Shown: piece by piece, positions 20,662-29,949 of the stretch
Layout of the letters: each line of letters starts with the position of its first letter
Position numbering within the stretch: the stretch's first letter is position 1
Virus record (IMG/VR): IMGVR_UViG_2648501437_000025
Length of the DNA: 38,438 bases
Source of the DNA: a virus
Lineage: Duplodnaviria > Heunggongvirae > Uroviricota > Caudoviricetes
Direction: 5' to 3' (one strand)
The notes under the pieces: model-generated
Database searches by the model: none
What the model was told of the DNA's origin: nothing
What the model saw: only the letters and a program-made list of their open reading frames with translations
Position numbers and translations under genes: made by a program

Positions 20662-21156
20662 TTAGTTTTGCTGTTCTATTTTAAGCTTGATAGTTTCATA
20701 CAAAACAATAGTTGCGCCTGTTTTACATAATTCCCGACTGTCATACGCACGAGACCAATAACACAACCAATTTTCAAGCTCTTCTCGTGTATAAATTTTA
20801 CAGGCCAGCCCCTCAGCCATCTCCACAACTTCATCGCCTGGTGCGGTTAATTCGTATCCATTTAACAATAAAAAAACCGCACCAGCCATCATTGCTGTGC
20901 GCTTGTTTGCATTGGCAAATGGATGATTCTGAATCAGACTTTCAATCAATACCGATGCCAGTACAAACATGTCGTTGGTTTGCTCATACCATCGAACCAT
21001 ACTGGGACGAGACTGAGAAGAACTTAAATTATCAACACTCAGCACACCAACAGGTTCATCTGGTGTTTGAAGCTCAATTAAAAGGCGATTAATTTCAGTA
21101 AGATCATCAACCGAAAGGTAGTGCACTCCTTCAACAATCTCAGCCATAGAGCACAA
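20662..21156 (-). CDS. doc: Doc-family toxin (Fic/Doc fold)
   Basis: Contains HPFANANKRTAMMAG, a variant of the Fic/Doc HxFx(D/N)(A/G)NKR active-site motif; preceded by a small partner ORF. Confidence 0.8.
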   Translation of the reverse strand: MCSMAEIVEGVHYLSVDDLTEINRLLIELQTPDEPVGVLSVDNLSSSQSRPSMVRWYEQTNDMFVLASVLIESLIQNHPFANANKRTAMMAGAVFLLLNGYELTAPGDEVVEMAEGLACKIYTREELENWLCYWSRAYDSRELCKTGATIVLYETIKLKIEQQN

Positions 21157-21167
21157 TACCCATCATT

Positions 21168-21344
21168 ACACTTTTGAAAGATCTTCCATTGCCTTCTCGT
21201 AACGAGAAAAACCGAAATCGAAAGCATTTTTCACCTGCTCACGATGAGTGCAATTTTCATCGATAGCCGGGCGCGGAGCTGCCACAACGCTTTTATCGCG
21301 AGGGGGAATAGTCAATCGCGGGTGTTTTTTTAGTGCGTAGCTCA
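21168..21344 (-). CDS. Putative antitoxin partner of Doc (58 aa, family not recognised)
   Basis: Small ORF (MSYALKKHPRLTIPPRDKSVVAAPRPAIDENCTHREQVKNAFDFGFSRYEKAMEDLSKV) with AAGGG RBS, ending just upstream of the Doc start; below the 60-aa track cutoff. Confidence 0.5.
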
Positions 21345-21463
21345 TTGGTGTACCCTTACTTCTCCGTCCTGTTCTTTAACAAAAATTAAGTCAATACAAA
21401 ATTAGTCAGGCTAATGTTGTTAGCATAGCCTAATACCAATCGTATTCACAACCACAGTACGTG

Positions 21464-21483
21464 AAAAAACCCGCCGAAGCGGG
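21464..21483 (-). terminator. Intrinsic terminator (cUUCGg-loop hairpin + U-run) at the 3' end of the hok locus
   Basis: Identical core to the 20624 element: aaaaaa-cccgc-cgaa-gcggg. Confidence 0.6.
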
Positions 21484-21553
21484 TTAAGTGCGGGTGCGTT
21501 GAGGATGCCTGACATATCAGAGGTGGCGGGAGATTACTCTCCCGCCCGGTCTC

Positions 21554-21709
21554 TTACTCCTCAGGTTCGTAAGCTGTGAAGACAGCGACCTCCGTCTGCC
21601 CGGTTCGGATTCGTACCTCGCAGAGGTCTTTCCTCGTTACCAGTGCCGTCACTATGACGGTTAAACAGATGACGATCAGGGCGACTAACATCGCCTTTTG
21701 CTGCTTCAT
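21554..21709 (-). CDS. hok: Hok/Gef-family type I toxin
   Basis: MKQQKAMLVALIVICLTVIVTALVTRKDLCEVRIRTGQTEVAVFTAYEPEE is near-identical to E. coli HokC/Gef as I remember it; AAGGAG RBS. Confidence 0.85.
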   Translation of the reverse strand: MKQQKAMLVALIVICLTVIVTALVTRKDLCEVRIRTGQTEVAVFTAYEPEE

Positions 21710-21766
21710 AGCCTGCATCTCCTTGACCTTTCGGTCCGTAAGAGGCAATCTATATGTGACGAGCAT
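21554..21766 (-). CDS. mok: Mok (in-frame N-terminally extended reading frame over hok)
   Basis: 70-aa ORF MLVTYRLPLTDRKVKEMQAMKQQ... matches the MokC-style extension; GAGG RBS upstream of the ATG at 21766. Confidence 0.6.
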   Translation of the reverse strand: MLVTYRLPLTDRKVKEMQAMKQQKAMLVALIVICLTVIVTALVTRKDLCEVRIRTGQTEVAVFTAYEPEE

Positions 21767-21806
21767 ATAGGGGCCTCACTTCGATTTATAGTCGGGTGGG
21801 GCTTTT
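21745..21806 (+). ncRNA. sok: Candidate Sok-like antisense RNA (approximate bounds)
   Basis: Plus-strand hairpin gcctcac...gtggggc followed by TTTT at 21773-21806, antisense to the mok translation-initiation region; 5' end not determined. Confidence 0.35.
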
Positions 21807-21949
21807 ATCTATCTGCCGTTGGTGTTCATGCCCGAGGCTGATAGCCTCAAGCACCCGCAGCAATTTTACTTAATTTCCCTTTAGTCAGAAATCATTTTTT
21901 AATCTATCTTGAAACAAGACTCAAATTCACAAATAAATTAAATATAAAA

Positions 21950-22852
21950 CTAAAACTCTATTTTTTGTGCCGGACGTGAGTTTAAAATCCAGCACTCCTG
22001 ATGTGTATGATGTATAGTTAGTAGATTGTCAAACTGAGATTTCTTAGCGTCAAATTCCATTTTATTTTTAAAGTCAACATTAAAATCTCCTGTTTCAATA
22101 GAGGCAAGAGCTTTGAGTCTATTGCATTCAGCATGCATATCAATTATATCGCTAAAACCTTCGCTTTTAATTCTTTTATTAACATAGTTCGTATAAATCC
22201 CTGCATGTTTATAAGAATCCATCACAGTGTATAATCCATCACCATCAATATCTGTAGGAGATGACATCCATTTAAAAACATGTAGAAGAAAAATATTTGC
22301 TGACCAAGGAAACACCACCCCATTAGCAAATGTTTCTGAAGTACCAGAACTAAGACTTTCATTAAGATTAGTCGCACCGATTAAGATCACATCGGTTTCA
22401 AACTCGTTCCGTTTACCAGCACCTACAAAATTAAAGGTCCCGGCATAGCATTGCCCAAGATAAACAACAGCATTTTTAAGATTTGGGGCTTCCTTCAAAG
22501 CCTTCAGTAATTGGCTTGGTGGGATAGGTTTCTGTGCATCAAGTCCATGAGGGCCACCATGACCAGTTACAAACATAACTATGTTATCATATGTATTATC
22601 ATTTAAGTCATTAAAAAAAACTGCTGATGGTTTTGACTTAAAAGGATATCTAGAAGCGAGTGCAAAAGCACCATCGTAATTCATTGAAGGGCTATCTATA
22701 TATATCGAAATATCATCTGGATTGATACCTGCCTTTTCGAGGCACATCACACCAAAGACTAAATCGACAACATGACGAAATTCCACTGCAGCTTTCGAAC
22801 AAGGCAAAAACATCACCCACCTTGTGCGTTCAGACCTAAGACTCATATACAT
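21950..22852 (-). CDS. Clan CD (legumain/caspase-like) cysteine peptidase-like protein
   Basis: Motifs NIVMFVTGHGGPHG and NAVVYLGQCYAG, 37 residues apart, follow the hydrophobic strand + His-Gly ... hydrophobic strand + Cys layout of legumain/caspase catalytic dyads; AT-rich gene; alternative start at 22813 with AAGGTGG RBS. Confidence 0.55.
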   Translation of the reverse strand: MYMSLRSERTRWVMFLPCSKAAVEFRHVVDLVFGVMCLEKAGINPDDISIYIDSPSMNYDGAFALASRYPFKSKPSAVFFNDLNDNTYDNIVMFVTGHGGPHGLDAQKPIPPSQLLKALKEAPNLKNAVVYLGQCYAGTFNFVGAGKRNEFETDVILIGATNLNESLSSGTSETFANGVVFPWSANIFLLHVFKWMSSPTDIDGDGLYTVMDSYKHAGIYTNYVNKRIKSEGFSDIIDMHAECNRLKALASIETGDFNVDFKNKMEFDAKKSQFDNLLTIHHTHQECWILNSRPAQKIEF

Positions 22853-22877
22853 CCTTGGTGGTTCGAAATGTACTTAA

Positions 22878-23174
22878 TTAAAGATTAAAATTATATCCAG
22901 AGAACACTGTATTACTGAGTGATGATGGTCTTGGTAAATCACTAAAATAAAACACTTCATCAATACTCAAGTGTTCGGTAATTTTTGTGGGCATAATCTG
23001 CCCTCGCTCATTCATGCCAAAGATATCATTACCGGTTTTTAGAAAAAATGTTATTTCCACGGTAATCCTGTAACTATTGGATTTGAAAAGCATCCATTGC
23101 CCAAGATTCACACACTCTTTTACTGCATCAGAGGTATCAGGCAACTCAGAAGATTGTAACCCCGTGAATTTCAT
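22878..23174 (-). CDS. Hypothetical 98-aa protein, first gene of the AT-rich island
   Basis: ORF with AAGGA RBS 8 nt upstream of the ATG at 23174; 25 nt upstream of the peptidase-like gene; no recognisable motif. Confidence 0.5.
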   Translation of the reverse strand: MKFTGLQSSELPDTSDAVKECVNLGQWMLFKSNSYRITVEITFFLKTGNDIFGMNERGQIMPTKITEHLSIDEVFYFSDLPRPSSLSNTVFSGYNFNL

Positions 23175-23302
23175 TTTCAGTCCTTATAGCTGCTTATGTA
23201 CTGAATTGCACTAAGCAACCTTTAATACCATTGCGACGAACAACAACCGTGTGATCGCTACCACGACCACACTGAAAATATAACTTTACATATTCATTAT
23301 CG

Positions 23303-23386
23303 TCAACCCCAGCGGCAAATCGAATACACCACCAGCGCCACCGCCATCGCAATTCCTACCGTAGTGAATGCCTCAGGCCAGGTCAT
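23303..23386 (-). CDS. 27-aa hydrophobic micro-ORF, translationally coupled
   Basis: MTWPEAFTTVGIAMAVALVVYSICRWG; ATG overlaps the stop of the upstream gene (ATGA) and is preceded by AGGAGGTGA at 5-nt spacing. Confidence 0.4.
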   Translation of the reverse strand: MTWPEAFTTVGIAMAVALVVYSICRWG

Positions 23387-23778
23387 TGATTCACCTCCTG
23401 CTCAATATTTTTCAGATCATTTTCCGCATACAGTATTGCTGTCCTGGCTGCTCGTAACCGGGCTTTGGCATTTTTCTCTTCACGTTCAAGTTTTGCCACA
23501 GCTTCACGAAGAGCATCCCGCTTTGCATAGAGTGATTTAATCTCAGTCACGATGTTTTCACCGTTTCTCGCACGGTCAAGAACAAGCTCGAACGGATCTA
23601 AAGCCAATCCACACCGTTTGCAGGTAATCGTACGATTCACTTCTGAAATTGTTGTACGGATATGCTGACAGCATTTTTGCTCGACACTTTTTTCGTCGGT
23701 TATCACAACGTTGAGGAGTCCTTCCTCCTCTGATTTTGGCTGCACCAGGGTGATAACATTGTCGCCTTCATTTTTCAT
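23383..23778 (-). CDS. Zinc-ribbon + coiled-coil protein (paralog A)
   Basis: CCQH...CKRCG...DPF followed by a charged coiled-coil (EREEKNAKARLRAA); shares this architecture with the ORF at 25529..25927. Confidence 0.5.
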   Translation of the reverse strand: MKNEGDNVITLVQPKSEEEGLLNVVITDEKSVEQKCCQHIRTTISEVNRTITCKRCGLALDPFELVLDRARNGENIVTEIKSLYAKRDALREAVAKLEREEKNAKARLRAARTAILYAENDLKNIEQEVNQ

Positions 23779-24290
23779 CAGTTCACCTCCTGCGGTGGTT
23801 CCGGTAGCGGCATCCAGTGAGTTGCCTGCTCAATACCATTACCCGGCTTAATCGTTGCTTCCCCTCGCCGGAATGTGCTTCCTGTATAGCGTGCGGAGCA
23901 TATTAGCGGTTCAACCAGAGAGCTATCGAAATTCACCGAAATAAGCACGTTCTGATTCTTTTCCGGCATTCGCTCACTACAGCTTATCCATGCATCCGGA
24001 GTTGCCGGCACTGGCTGGGCGGTGTAAAGTGGAACAACTCGCCCTCCCCATTGCTTAACACTACTCTCAGCGAACACTAAATGCTCAGTCCGATAATACC
24101 CAGGGGCATCAATATCTTTTCTTTCGCTATCCCACATGTAAACCACCGGCTCTGCTTCCAGCGATGCCAGTGCGATACGAAACACATTGGCAAGCAGGCT
24201 GTCTGAAGATTGGTTATCGTGCGCCGGGTCGCTCAGGAAACCAGTGATGAATGATTTAATCTCCGCTTTTTCTCTGGTAATAGTGGTCAT
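23778..24290 (-). CDS. DUF551-domain protein
   Basis: C-terminal segment WISCSERMPEKNQNVLISVN...THWMPLPEPP resembles the DUF551 signature from memory; start placed at ATG 24290 (MTTITREK...), 1 nt after the upstream stop. Confidence 0.6.
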   Translation of the reverse strand: MTTITREKAEIKSFITGFLSDPAHDNQSSDSLLANVFRIALASLEAEPVVYMWDSERKDIDAPGYYRTEHLVFAESSVKQWGGRVVPLYTAQPVPATPDAWISCSERMPEKNQNVLISVNFDSSLVEPLICSARYTGSTFRRGEATIKPGNGIEQATHWMPLPEPPQEVN

Positions 24291-24291
24291 T

Positions 24292-24510
24292 TCAGCTTTC
24301 CTTATATGGGTTGATTTTGTTGTGCAATGTGTTGAACGACGCCCATACCACGTCGTTATACAATTCAATAACTGGCTCAATTATTTTCCCGATTGCCCAG
24401 ACAAAAATTAGCGGGGATATCGGTATCATCAACACGATAAACAGAATGAGAAACAAAAATTCTGTCGCTCTACTTTTTCGCGGATATTCTTTTCTGAATA
24501 ATGTAGGCAC
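24292..24510 (-). CDS. Small membrane protein (72 aa)
   Basis: Hydrophobic core FLFLILFIVLMIPISPLIFVWAIG; stop immediately before the DUF551 start. Confidence 0.45.
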   Translation of the reverse strand: MPTLFRKEYPRKSRATEFLFLILFIVLMIPISPLIFVWAIGKIIEPVIELYNDVVWASFNTLHNKINPYKES

Positions 24511-24511
24511 A

Positions 24512-24727
24512 TCACTCTCCTTTGTTGCTTCTCAAAATTTTATGCCCTGGCGCAAAAGCACGCGTTTTGTCGACGCTTATTCGCCACCCATCTTTACGTG
24601 CCTCTTTTGCACTGCCAGCCCATGACGTACCGATATACTCACCAAAATCTGGCGACTGATATTTGCCATCCGTACACTGGCGGCAATCACAATAGAGATG
24701 CATGGTGTAACTTGCGGCAATACTCAT
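24512..24727 (-). CDS. Hypothetical Cys-rich 71-aa protein
   Basis: ORF with CDCRQC motif, packed in the nin operon. Confidence 0.4.
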   Translation of the reverse strand: MSIAASYTMHLYCDCRQCTDGKYQSPDFGEYIGTSWAGSAKEARKDGWRISVDKTRAFAPGHKILRSNKGE

Positions 24728-25087
24728 TCAGCCTCCTTTGATGCCTGTGTTTACAACCAGGCAGGCTTCCTTGAGTACCCAGTCAATAGCGTCTTTCCAT
24801 GCTCCGGTTTCAACTGGCGGATTCTCACGCCGTACCTGTTCATAAAAGCGCACAGCTTTAACCAGCCCTTCTGATGACACCGGGGCTGGCGGGGCCGTGA
24901 ATAACGCCTGAATTTCATAGTTCGGTCTGTCGTTACAATCTTCTTTTGTCGGGGCATATTTCCAGTCACCAAACCACGACTTACCCTGAGAGTCCGTAAC
25001 GCCTTTTTTCACGTAGCGATACCGCCATGCAACTGGTTTTGCCTGCCCTGCCGTTTCATGCCCTTCCTGATAATTAATCTCACTCAT
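24728..25087 (-). CDS. Hypothetical nin-region protein (119 aa)
   Basis: ORF with ATGA overlap to the upstream small ORF. Confidence 0.45.
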   Translation of the reverse strand: MSEINYQEGHETAGQAKPVAWRYRYVKKGVTDSQGKSWFGDWKYAPTKEDCNDRPNYEIQALFTAPPAPVSSEGLVKAVRFYEQVRRENPPVETGAWKDAIDWVLKEACLVVNTGIKGG

Positions 25088-29529: not shown

Positions 29530-29949
29530 ATGGAAAAAGAAAACGAAAAAATTGCCGCTAGTAGGCTCAATGACAAAATTGCAATGCGTCTTAAAGAGCG
29601 CAGGCAGAAGCTTGGTTTATCTCAAGGAAAACTTGCTGAAATCTGCGGATGGACGCAATCGCGTATAGGTAACTATGAGGCGGGCAGCAGAAATGTTGGA
29701 GTGCATGATGCTGTCGTCCTGGGAAAGGCGCTGGGCATATCTCCTCCTGAGCTCCTCTTTGGGGAAAAAGACTCTTCTGAATTGTGGTTAAATGAATCCC
29801 AACGAAAACTTCTTGAGTTGTTTAACCAGCTACCGGGCTCAGAACAACAACGAATGATTGAGCTATTTGAAGTCCGGCTAAAAGAAATCGACGAGTATGT
29901 AGAAAAATATTTGAGGGGCAGGCTTAAAGATACCCCCCCACCGGAGTAA
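29530..29949 (+). CDS. Prophage repressor (CI-like XRE HTH, no peptidase domain)
   Basis: HTH segment LGLSQGKLAEICGWTQSRIGNYEAG; divergent from the Cro-like gene; followed by its own terminator. Confidence 0.7.
   Translation: MEKENEKIAASRLNDKIAMRLKERRQKLGLSQGKLAEICGWTQSRIGNYEAGSRNVGVHDAVVLGKALGISPPELLFGEKDSSELWLNESQRKLLELFNQLPGSEQQRMIELFEVRLKEIDEYVEKYLRGRLKDTPPPE

Follow-up and report, generated by a model that had tools for sequence, protein, structure and literature searches.

Is a 27-codon open reading frame (ORF) that overlaps the end of a phage gene a gene in its own right, and if so, what could its product do? This question is raised by IMG/VR record IMGVR_UViG_2648501437_000025, a stretch of 38,438 nucleotides (nt) of virus DNA (Caudoviricetes), which is called the window throughout. 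On its minus strand, directly behind a gene for a protein of 131 amino acids (aa), it carries a micro-ORF for a hydrophobic peptide. In the original prediction the two ORFs were described as a translationally coupled pair, consisting of a zinc-ribbon/coiled-coil protein and a small hydrophobic peptide of the kind seen among membrane-active toxins or regulators. The analysis described here makes it probable that the micro-ORF is a real gene that moves as a module of its own among lambdoid prophages and phage-plasmids of Escherichia, Shigella and Salmonella, that it is translated by coupling or direct initiation, that it encodes a single-helix membrane modulator or effector, and that the 131-aa gene is a separate cassette.

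Start signals and coding potential of the micro-ORF

Both ORFs were found where they had been predicted (Table 1), and their strand was added here. As proposed, the stop codon TGA of the 131-aa ORF (23385-23383) shares the sequence ATGA with the start codon of the micro-ORF (23386-23384). The element AGGAGGTGA had been taken to bear this stop codon, but the TGA within this element lies in another frame, and the element is instead the Shine-Dalgarno sequence of the micro-ORF, with a spacing of 4 nt to the ATG and with its GGAGG core 7 nt from the ATG. For the duplex of AGGAGGTGA with the 3' end of the 16S rRNA an energy of -17.3 kcal/mol was predicted, and duplex energies across copies of the micro-ORF ranged from -17.3 to -6.5 kcal/mol. 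RNA folding around the micro-ORF revealed no significant structure that would sequester the Shine-Dalgarno sequence (z = -1.1). A programmed frameshift fusing the upstream protein to the peptide was considered and rejected: the micro-ORF does lie in the -1 frame, but the sequence AAT CAA TGA is not slippery.

The micro-ORF is translated in silico to MTWPEAFTTVGIAMAVALVVYSICRWG. In agreement with the single hydrophobic helix proposed earlier, the 19-residue Kyte-Doolittle mean of residues 6-24 was 2.11, which is within the range to be expected of a membrane-spanning helix, and the corresponding values of five peptide variants were 2.07-2.62. A length of 27 codons alone is unremarkable, as the surrounding 4 kb are overlapped by 71 ORFs of at least 20 aa. 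Because such short ORFs are common nearby, the case for the micro-ORF rests on comparison with its relatives.

Copies of the micro-ORF were gathered with a degenerate DNA pattern that fixes only codons 1, 3-6 and 21-26 and for which 0 chance matches are expected in the window. The matches listed lay on at least 120 IMG/VR contigs and 7 genome contigs, and 137 copies were among them. Exactly 27 codons were found in 136 of the 137 copies, the stop after codon 27 being outside the search pattern, and none contained an internal stop codon. A TGA at +2 to +4, which is likewise not imposed by the pattern, was present in 137/137; one subgroup uses TGATG, a one-base overlap. The signals from which coupling had been predicted, stop/start overlap and Shine-Dalgarno sequence, were kept in every copy examined: a GGAGG/GAGG-type element precedes essentially all 137 copies, and in nearly all of them the spacing between GGAGG and the ATG is 7 or 10 nt.

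The retrieved copies comprised 55 distinct DNA variants and 33 peptide variants. In the unconstrained codons 7-20, entropy was lowest at the second codon position (0.25), intermediate at the first (0.44) and highest at the third (0.74), and the proportion of non-synonymous differences (pN) was lower than that of synonymous ones (pS) in most pairwise comparisons of copies. On a minimum spanning tree of these codons 52 synonymous and 45 non-synonymous single-base changes were counted, where 29% synonymous changes are expected (p = 5e-7), while no synonymous excess was obtained in the control frames (17/81 and 16/85 synonymous/non-synonymous). The most divergent matches of a pattern-free blastn search (75-79% nt identity) were intact 27-codon ORFs. 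One divergent intact copy follows a pseudogenised DUF551 gene, and one truncated remnant was also seen. Since length and TGA overlap are conserved and the synonymous excess is specific to this frame, a chance ORF is unlikely, and the comparative sequence data indicate that the micro-ORF is a genuine protein-coding gene.

These data also bear on the idea that the conserved ~95 nt are a linker at which the modules of mosaic lambdoid genomes recombine, the ORF being incidental. Such a linker would fit the observation that homology blocks begin and end exactly at module borders, as well as the repetition of the junction sequence described below. It does not fit a substitution pattern that is frame-specific, the retention of length and stop codon at 75% nt identity, or the hydrophobic character that is kept across all 33 peptide variants, and we regard it as extremely improbable.

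Mobility of the module and its relation to the 131-aa protein

Conservation in related prophages had been set as a test by the original prediction, and the outcome speaks for the ORF, which is conserved in Salmonella as well as in about 30% of the complete genomes of E. coli. Of 5426 such E. coli genomes, 1604 carry the 99-nt module (Shine-Dalgarno sequence and ORF); it was counted at 2893 places, of which 161 are on plasmids, and with up to 7 occurrences per genome. Plasmids of ~90-100 kb, most of them non-mobilizable, were found to carry it as well, 181 in all; their hosts are E. coli, E. albertii, E. fergusonii and Salmonella. By tblastn, the micro-ORF was identified in 94 phage records, including the reference Shiga toxin (Stx) phages 933W, VT1-Sakai and VT2-Sakai as well as BP-4795, Min27 and ArgO145. 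A phmmer search with a 31-residue query against 1.84 billion cluster representatives returned 24 close relatives only; judged by these searches, the micro-ORF family is narrow and confined to enterobacterial phages. Exact pattern matches were also obtained on two tiny contigs assigned to Xanthomonas pisi (L012, 431 bp) and Acinetobacter idrijaensis (L015, 369 bp), which most likely represent contamination of the assemblies with E. coli or phage DNA.

The gene upstream of the micro-ORF varies from locus to locus and can be a DUF551 gene, a member of a family ending in ...RNGLISVEDILR, a dATP/dGTP pyrophosphohydrolase gene or a member of phrog_1621, the family of the 131-aa protein. Among the 137 copies, the largest class of upstream tails was that of DUF551 (...PLPEPPQEVNQ). 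The C-terminal tail QEVN(Q) is common to otherwise unrelated upstream proteins and belongs to the mobile junction. Downstream, at least 10 unrelated junctions were found, each beginning at the stop codon of the micro-ORF; among what follows are the hok promoter region, a gene located ahead of xis-int, a toxin-antitoxin pair in convergent orientation and several hairpins.

The specific pairing with the 131-aa protein that the original prediction implied is not supported, as the micro-ORF follows at least four unrelated genes. In the five genera in which 131-aa homologues were checked for a micro-ORF downstream, the association held for E. coli and Salmonella but not for Raoultella, K. aerogenes and Citrobacter. 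A megablast search with the pair of 131-aa gene and micro-ORF yielded 54 genomes only, and homology ended at 23307, the end of the micro-ORF. The 131-aa gene is flanked by a 19-nt direct repeat (copies GCAGGAGGTGAATCAATGA and GCAGGAGGTGAACTGATGA) with 84% identity, 12 exact nt (GCAGGAGGTGAA) and a spacing of 392, and in many relatives DUF551 is joined straight to the micro-ORF. Because it is bracketed by this junction repeat, the 131-aa gene looks like a cassette that was put into the DUF551/micro-ORF junction by recombination in the linker bearing the Shine-Dalgarno sequence. The repeat GCAGGAGGTGAA...TGA/ATG is an example of how mosaic lambdoid genomes recombine within their linkers.

In rare natural cases the peptide forms the C-terminal tail of upstream soluble proteins by in-frame fusion (P0187, P0190, P0180). 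In L149/L150 (1501-1932) it is fused to an Ea22-like coiled-coil protein (143 aa), with a 1-nt indel at the junction that removes the stop codon, and in P0190 and P0180 the partner is the N-terminal part of proteins of the family to which the 119-aa ORF of the window (24728-25087) belongs. These fusions may have arisen by accident, or they may hint at a tethering to the membrane. The clustering of the peptide with DUF551 proteins of 121 and 185 aa was rejected as a further fusion, since it is due to partial calls at contig edges (GGESMTWPEAF...); NCBI records label such partial calls 'DUF551 domain-containing protein, partial'.

If micro-ORF and 131-aa protein formed a dedicated two-gene system, either a toxin with its antitoxin or a membrane anchor with its effector, then the ATGA coupling in the window, the recurrence of the pair in E. 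coli and Salmonella and the rare in-frame fusions to soluble proteins would be readily understood. Other genes precede most copies, however, in Raoultella, Klebsiella and Citrobacter the 131-aa protein has homologues that occur without the micro-ORF, the junction repeat brackets the 131-aa gene like an inserted cassette, and the fusions involve the Ea22-like protein and the 119-aa family but not the 131-aa protein. A dedicated system of the two genes is thus considered very unlikely, and a mobile micro-ORF next to a separate cassette is preferred.

For the 131-aa protein itself the label of a zinc-ribbon/coiled-coil protein was upheld. Residues 1-130 match positions 5-134 of the phrog_1621 profile over its full length (E = 4e-48), and 117 homologues were found across Enterobacteriaceae, in genera that besides E. 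coli include Salmonella, Raoultella, Klebsiella, Enterobacter, Citrobacter, Kosakonia and Atlantibacter. An alignment of 47 homologues shows C37, H39, C53 and C56 to be invariant, as is expected of the four metal ligands on the two knuckles of a zinc ribbon; conservation is also high in the segment LEREEKNAKARLR...AENDLKN. The AlphaFold2 model (mean predicted local distance difference test score, pLDDT, 85.8) contains short beta strands at residues 42-45, 50-53 and 59-60 and a single helix at residues 62-130. Alignment and model support the view that a zinc ribbon followed by a long, probably coiled-coil helix fairly describes the protein. No significant fold match was obtained in a Foldseek comparison of the model with the PDB, in which zinc ribbons such as TFIIB scored best (E >= 0.84), the Pfam profile Cas12f1-like_TNB stayed below its cut-off (16.5 versus 26.3 bits), and PADLOC returned nothing meaningful for the protein and its neighbours.

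Predicted topology and candidate functions of the peptide

The residues W3, P4, A6, G11, A15, Y21, S22, R25 and W26 of the peptide are invariant. They fall largely into two caps, W3-P4-E/D5 at the N-terminal and Y21-S22-x-x-R25-W26 at the C-terminal end, which enclose a core with the small residues G11, A15 and A17; conservation is strongest at these interfacial caps. Rare longer variants carry extra basic residues at the C-terminal end (RWGKNVRRD). In two others, P0174 (...GIAMAMAMAMAMAVAL..., 35 aa) and P0176 (...GIAVAVAVAVAL..., 31 aa), in-frame tandem hexanucleotide expansions of the helix core lengthen the transmembrane segment and leave the frame intact.

In the mechanism that we propose, the module consists of a Shine-Dalgarno sequence in the last ~5 codons of the upstream gene, the overlapping stop and start codons and the 27 codons, with homology ending at the stop. 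It sits within, or ends, early accessory arrays of the Ea22/DUF551 type, either in the exo-xis (pL) region or in the nin-type (pR) region; the window shows the latter placement, between the replication genes and Q. Translation would be carried out by ribosomes finishing the upstream gene or by new ones recruited by the very strong Shine-Dalgarno sequence, so that we infer that the peptide is made whenever the early operon is expressed. The product would be a single transmembrane helix (residues ~6-24) with aromatic/polar caps at both membrane interfaces. An N-out/C-in orientation in the inner membrane may be assumed because of the acidic residue 5, arginine 25 and the basic C-terminal extensions of some variants. 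The peptide would act through contacts between helices within the membrane, either with itself or with a membrane protein of the host or of the phage, as a small modulator or effector and not as a partner of the 131-aa protein.

Small inner-membrane modulators of E. coli and Salmonella such as KdpF, AcrZ, MgtS, CydX, PmrR, MgtR and SgrT have 20-50 residues and one transmembrane helix and are often missed by annotation. Modulators of the KdpF/AcrZ/MgtS type bind a larger membrane protein, and several are co-transcribed with larger genes. The micro-ORF product resembles them in its size, its one predicted helix and in having been overlooked by annotation, but it is phage-borne and mobile and lacks a fixed partner gene; the KdpF profile TIGR02115 scored 14.7 bits with the peptide, below the cut-off of 26.85. 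From its predicted features it is a member of the phage-encoded small membrane proteins. A catalogue of predicted small ORFs by Fremin et al. from 2022 reportedly deals with the same general class.

That the peptide is a membrane-active toxin or regulator, as originally proposed, is plausible. In the toxin version it would be a membrane-damaging peptide, either type-I-like or, like Kil, an early host-shutoff peptide, which upon firing of the early operon would depolarise the inner membrane or make it permeable. This would go well with the presence of hok within 1500 nt downstream in 64 of the 137 retrieved copies, and with a silent state in lysogens if the gene is driven only by pL or pR. Like the type I toxins Hok/Gef, TisB, DinQ, ShoB and Ldr, the peptide is very small and hydrophobic and is predicted to form a single helix in the inner membrane. 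Known type I toxins are subject to tight translational repression. The micro-ORF differs from them in being coupled within an operon behind a strong and exposed Shine-Dalgarno sequence: no own promoter or long structured leader was found, and a consensus promoter scan detected no promoter-like site on the plus (antisense) strand at or near it. An Rfam scan of 21000-25000 gave only sok (21707-21856), which belongs to hok, although a novel RNA may exist. Matches to Hok/Gef (PF01848) or other toxin families were absent from Pfam, NCBIfam and PHROGs, conservation is highest at the interfacial caps instead of reflecting generic hydrophobicity, and up to 7 copies per genome are tolerated. Because no antisense RNA, own promoter or repressing leader was found, the caps are conserved and many copies are tolerated, a modulator is favoured over a classical toxin; a toxin, for instance of the Kil-like early kind, is still a possibility to be kept in mind, albeit an unlikely one.

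The micro-ORF might also be translated while its peptide is irrelevant. As a coupling, leader or arrest ORF it would then govern, in cis, how ribosomes move, how Rho gains access or what becomes of the mRNA at the end of the array. It often ends the transcription unit and is then followed by hairpins or the hok promoter, and the C-terminal residues beside the stop codon are conserved, as would be expected of such an ORF. Purifying selection acts along the whole peptide, however, including the N-terminal end and the core, and the variety of unrelated sequences downstream leaves no common regulated target, unlike for leaders of the TnaC/SecM type. C-terminal extensions and in-frame core expansions exist as well, and a chain of 27 residues would not emerge from the exit tunnel, so that arrest by force sensing is excluded. 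A role purely in cis therefore appears highly improbable.

A more specific version of the membrane module was also considered, in which a portable unit is appended by coupling to the last gene of the Ea22/DUF551 array and its peptide, upon early expression, either binds and modulates one particular protein of the inner membrane, such as Hok, a component of the divisome or a protein of DNA entry or transport, or tethers upstream soluble proteins to the membrane. It would thereby contribute to lysis-lysogeny, exclusion or host-takeover phenotypes that have until now been ascribed to the exo-xis/nin region of Stx phages. If tethering were true, the in-frame fusions would be 'Rosetta-stone' hints. 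This version is speculative, and we think it rather doubtful.

For the preferred interpretation, a coupled single-helix modulator or effector, several points have to be set on the other side of the balance. Translation, membrane insertion and phenotype of the peptide are predicted, and the support for them is sequence-based. The copies are short and phylogenetically related, which makes the substitution statistics approximate, and the search pattern forces conservation at codons 1, 3-6 and 21-26, where invariance rests on the pattern-free blastn and tblastn matches. The helical periodicity of conservation had a moment of 0.137, which was reached by 40% of shuffles, so that a single conserved face is unsupported. 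Finally, no trace of the peptide was found in the supplements of small-ORF and ribosome profiling (Ribo-seq) studies of enterohaemorrhagic E. coli (EHEC) and other enterobacteria; this absence is weak evidence, because prophages are repressed under the conditions of those studies.

Genomic neighbourhood, annotation and implications

The minus strand of the window represents the rightward early operon of a lambdoid prophage. From the divergent helix-turn-helix (HTH) repressor onwards, genes for YdaT-like, DUF1376, DnaC-like and DUF1627 proteins are followed by a small accessory array, which ends with DUF551, the 131-aa gene and the micro-ORF (Table 1). Beyond the micro-ORF lie two extra ORFs, mok/hok with sok, and genes for Fic/DOC, DUF1367, YbcO and Q-like DUF1133 proteins. 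The closest relatives show the same layout, and 933W, VT1-Sakai and others carry an equivalent array ahead of hokW or xis-int, within the exo-xis (pL) region.

Table 1. Position and basis of the features assigned at and around the micro-ORF in the window
Feature	Coordinates	Strand	Basis
Micro-ORF, 27 codons, putative single-pass membrane microprotein	23303..23386	-	ORF and conservation, coding statistics, hydropathy
Shine-Dalgarno sequence AGGAGGTGA of the micro-ORF, 9 nt, within the last codons (QEVNQ) of the upstream gene	23391..23399	-	
Junction repeat copy 1 GCAGGAGGTGAATCAATGA, 5' boundary of the micro-ORF module, includes the ATGA overlap	23383..23401	-	Direct repeat; homology to ~1600 genomes starts here
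131-aa gene (phrog_1621), Cys/His zinc-ribbon-like module and 69-residue helix	23383..23778	-	Profile match, alignment, AlphaFold2
Junction repeat copy 2 GCAGGAGGTGAACTGATGA, DUF551 tail and Shine-Dalgarno sequence ahead of the 131-aa gene	23775..23793	-	
DUF551-domain gene, commonest upstream partner of the micro-ORF elsewhere	23778..24380	-	Pfam DUF551, 79.2 bits
Terminator-like hairpin, 30 nt past the micro-ORF stop, specific to the downstream junction of this window	23249..23272	-	Consensus scan and minimum free energy fold, pattern match only
mok/hok toxin ORF (70 aa) and sok antisense region, a complete type I locus and separate module	21554..21856	-	ORF; Rfam sok 99.9 bits, 21707-21856
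Divergent HTH repressor	29530-29949	+	

In about half of the relatives the hok locus directly follows the micro-ORF, and the presumed hok promoter starts just past its stop codon. Most relatives have only ~200 nt at the place where the window carries two ORFs between micro-ORF and hok (21950-23174, minus strand). One of these ORFs (98 aa) belongs to phrog_30138; the other (300 aa) has a Pfam match to Peptidase_C13 (legumain/caspase-like) of 27.4 bits, against a cut-off of 22.8, over one short stretch. At a coverage of at least 80% this insert was found in 10 of 5426 complete E. coli genomes, in one of them nearly identical. It looks like moron or defence-type cargo; PADLOC gave no match for it. 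Downstream of hok in the nin-type region, the Fic/DOC-family ORF (164 aa, 20662-21156, minus strand) was assigned by Pfam with E = 1.7e-11.

The micro-ORF shares its neighbourhood after Ea22/DUF551-type genes and its mosaic shuffling with the exo-xis/nin accessory genes of lambdoid and Stx phages (ea22, orf60a, orf61, orf63, orf73, ea8.5), which are presumably early and non-essential. Unlike the characterised exo-xis proteins, which are soluble, its product is far smaller and hydrophobic. A variant of ea22 with a C-terminal DUF551 domain has been described in Stx phages (PMC10834534); the passages of that paper that were searched mention neither a membrane protein nor an ORF after ea22. A search by terms in the paper on the prophage small RNA svsR likewise gave no mention of hok, a small protein or DUF551. 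Among published small-ORF catalogues, that of Fesenko et al. (2024, PMC11188072) contains comparable entries, hydrophobic microproteins under purifying selection that are skipped by pipelines; its candidates are intergenic ORFs, whereas the micro-ORF overlaps an upstream stop codon, and the peptide was not found in the parts of its supplements that were covered.

In none of the RefSeq/PGAP loci inspected was the micro-ORF annotated. The identical 27-aa sequence has been entered in GenBank by a small number of submitters, under the names hypothetical, bacteriophage or prophage protein. Pfam, NCBIfam and PHROGs contained no family for three peptide variants and gave sub-threshold noise only, and in a full-text literature search with peptide strings no mention was found.

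The object of interest is accordingly the micro-ORF itself, which is mobile, conserved and mostly unannotated, and not its pairing with a zinc-ribbon protein. Almost one in three complete E. coli genomes carries this gene, in many cases more than once, and yet it is absent from the RefSeq records inspected. The phenotypes of exo-xis and nin deletions in Stx phages, such as effects on prophage induction and a lysogeny bias, are now assigned to annotated genes only, and where ea22/DUF551-type genes are deleted or replaced in a construct, the peptide may be lost or uncoupled along with them. The micro-ORF offers an easily tested candidate for a membrane-targeting phage microprotein, and illustrates how length cut-offs in annotation hide conserved mobile genes.

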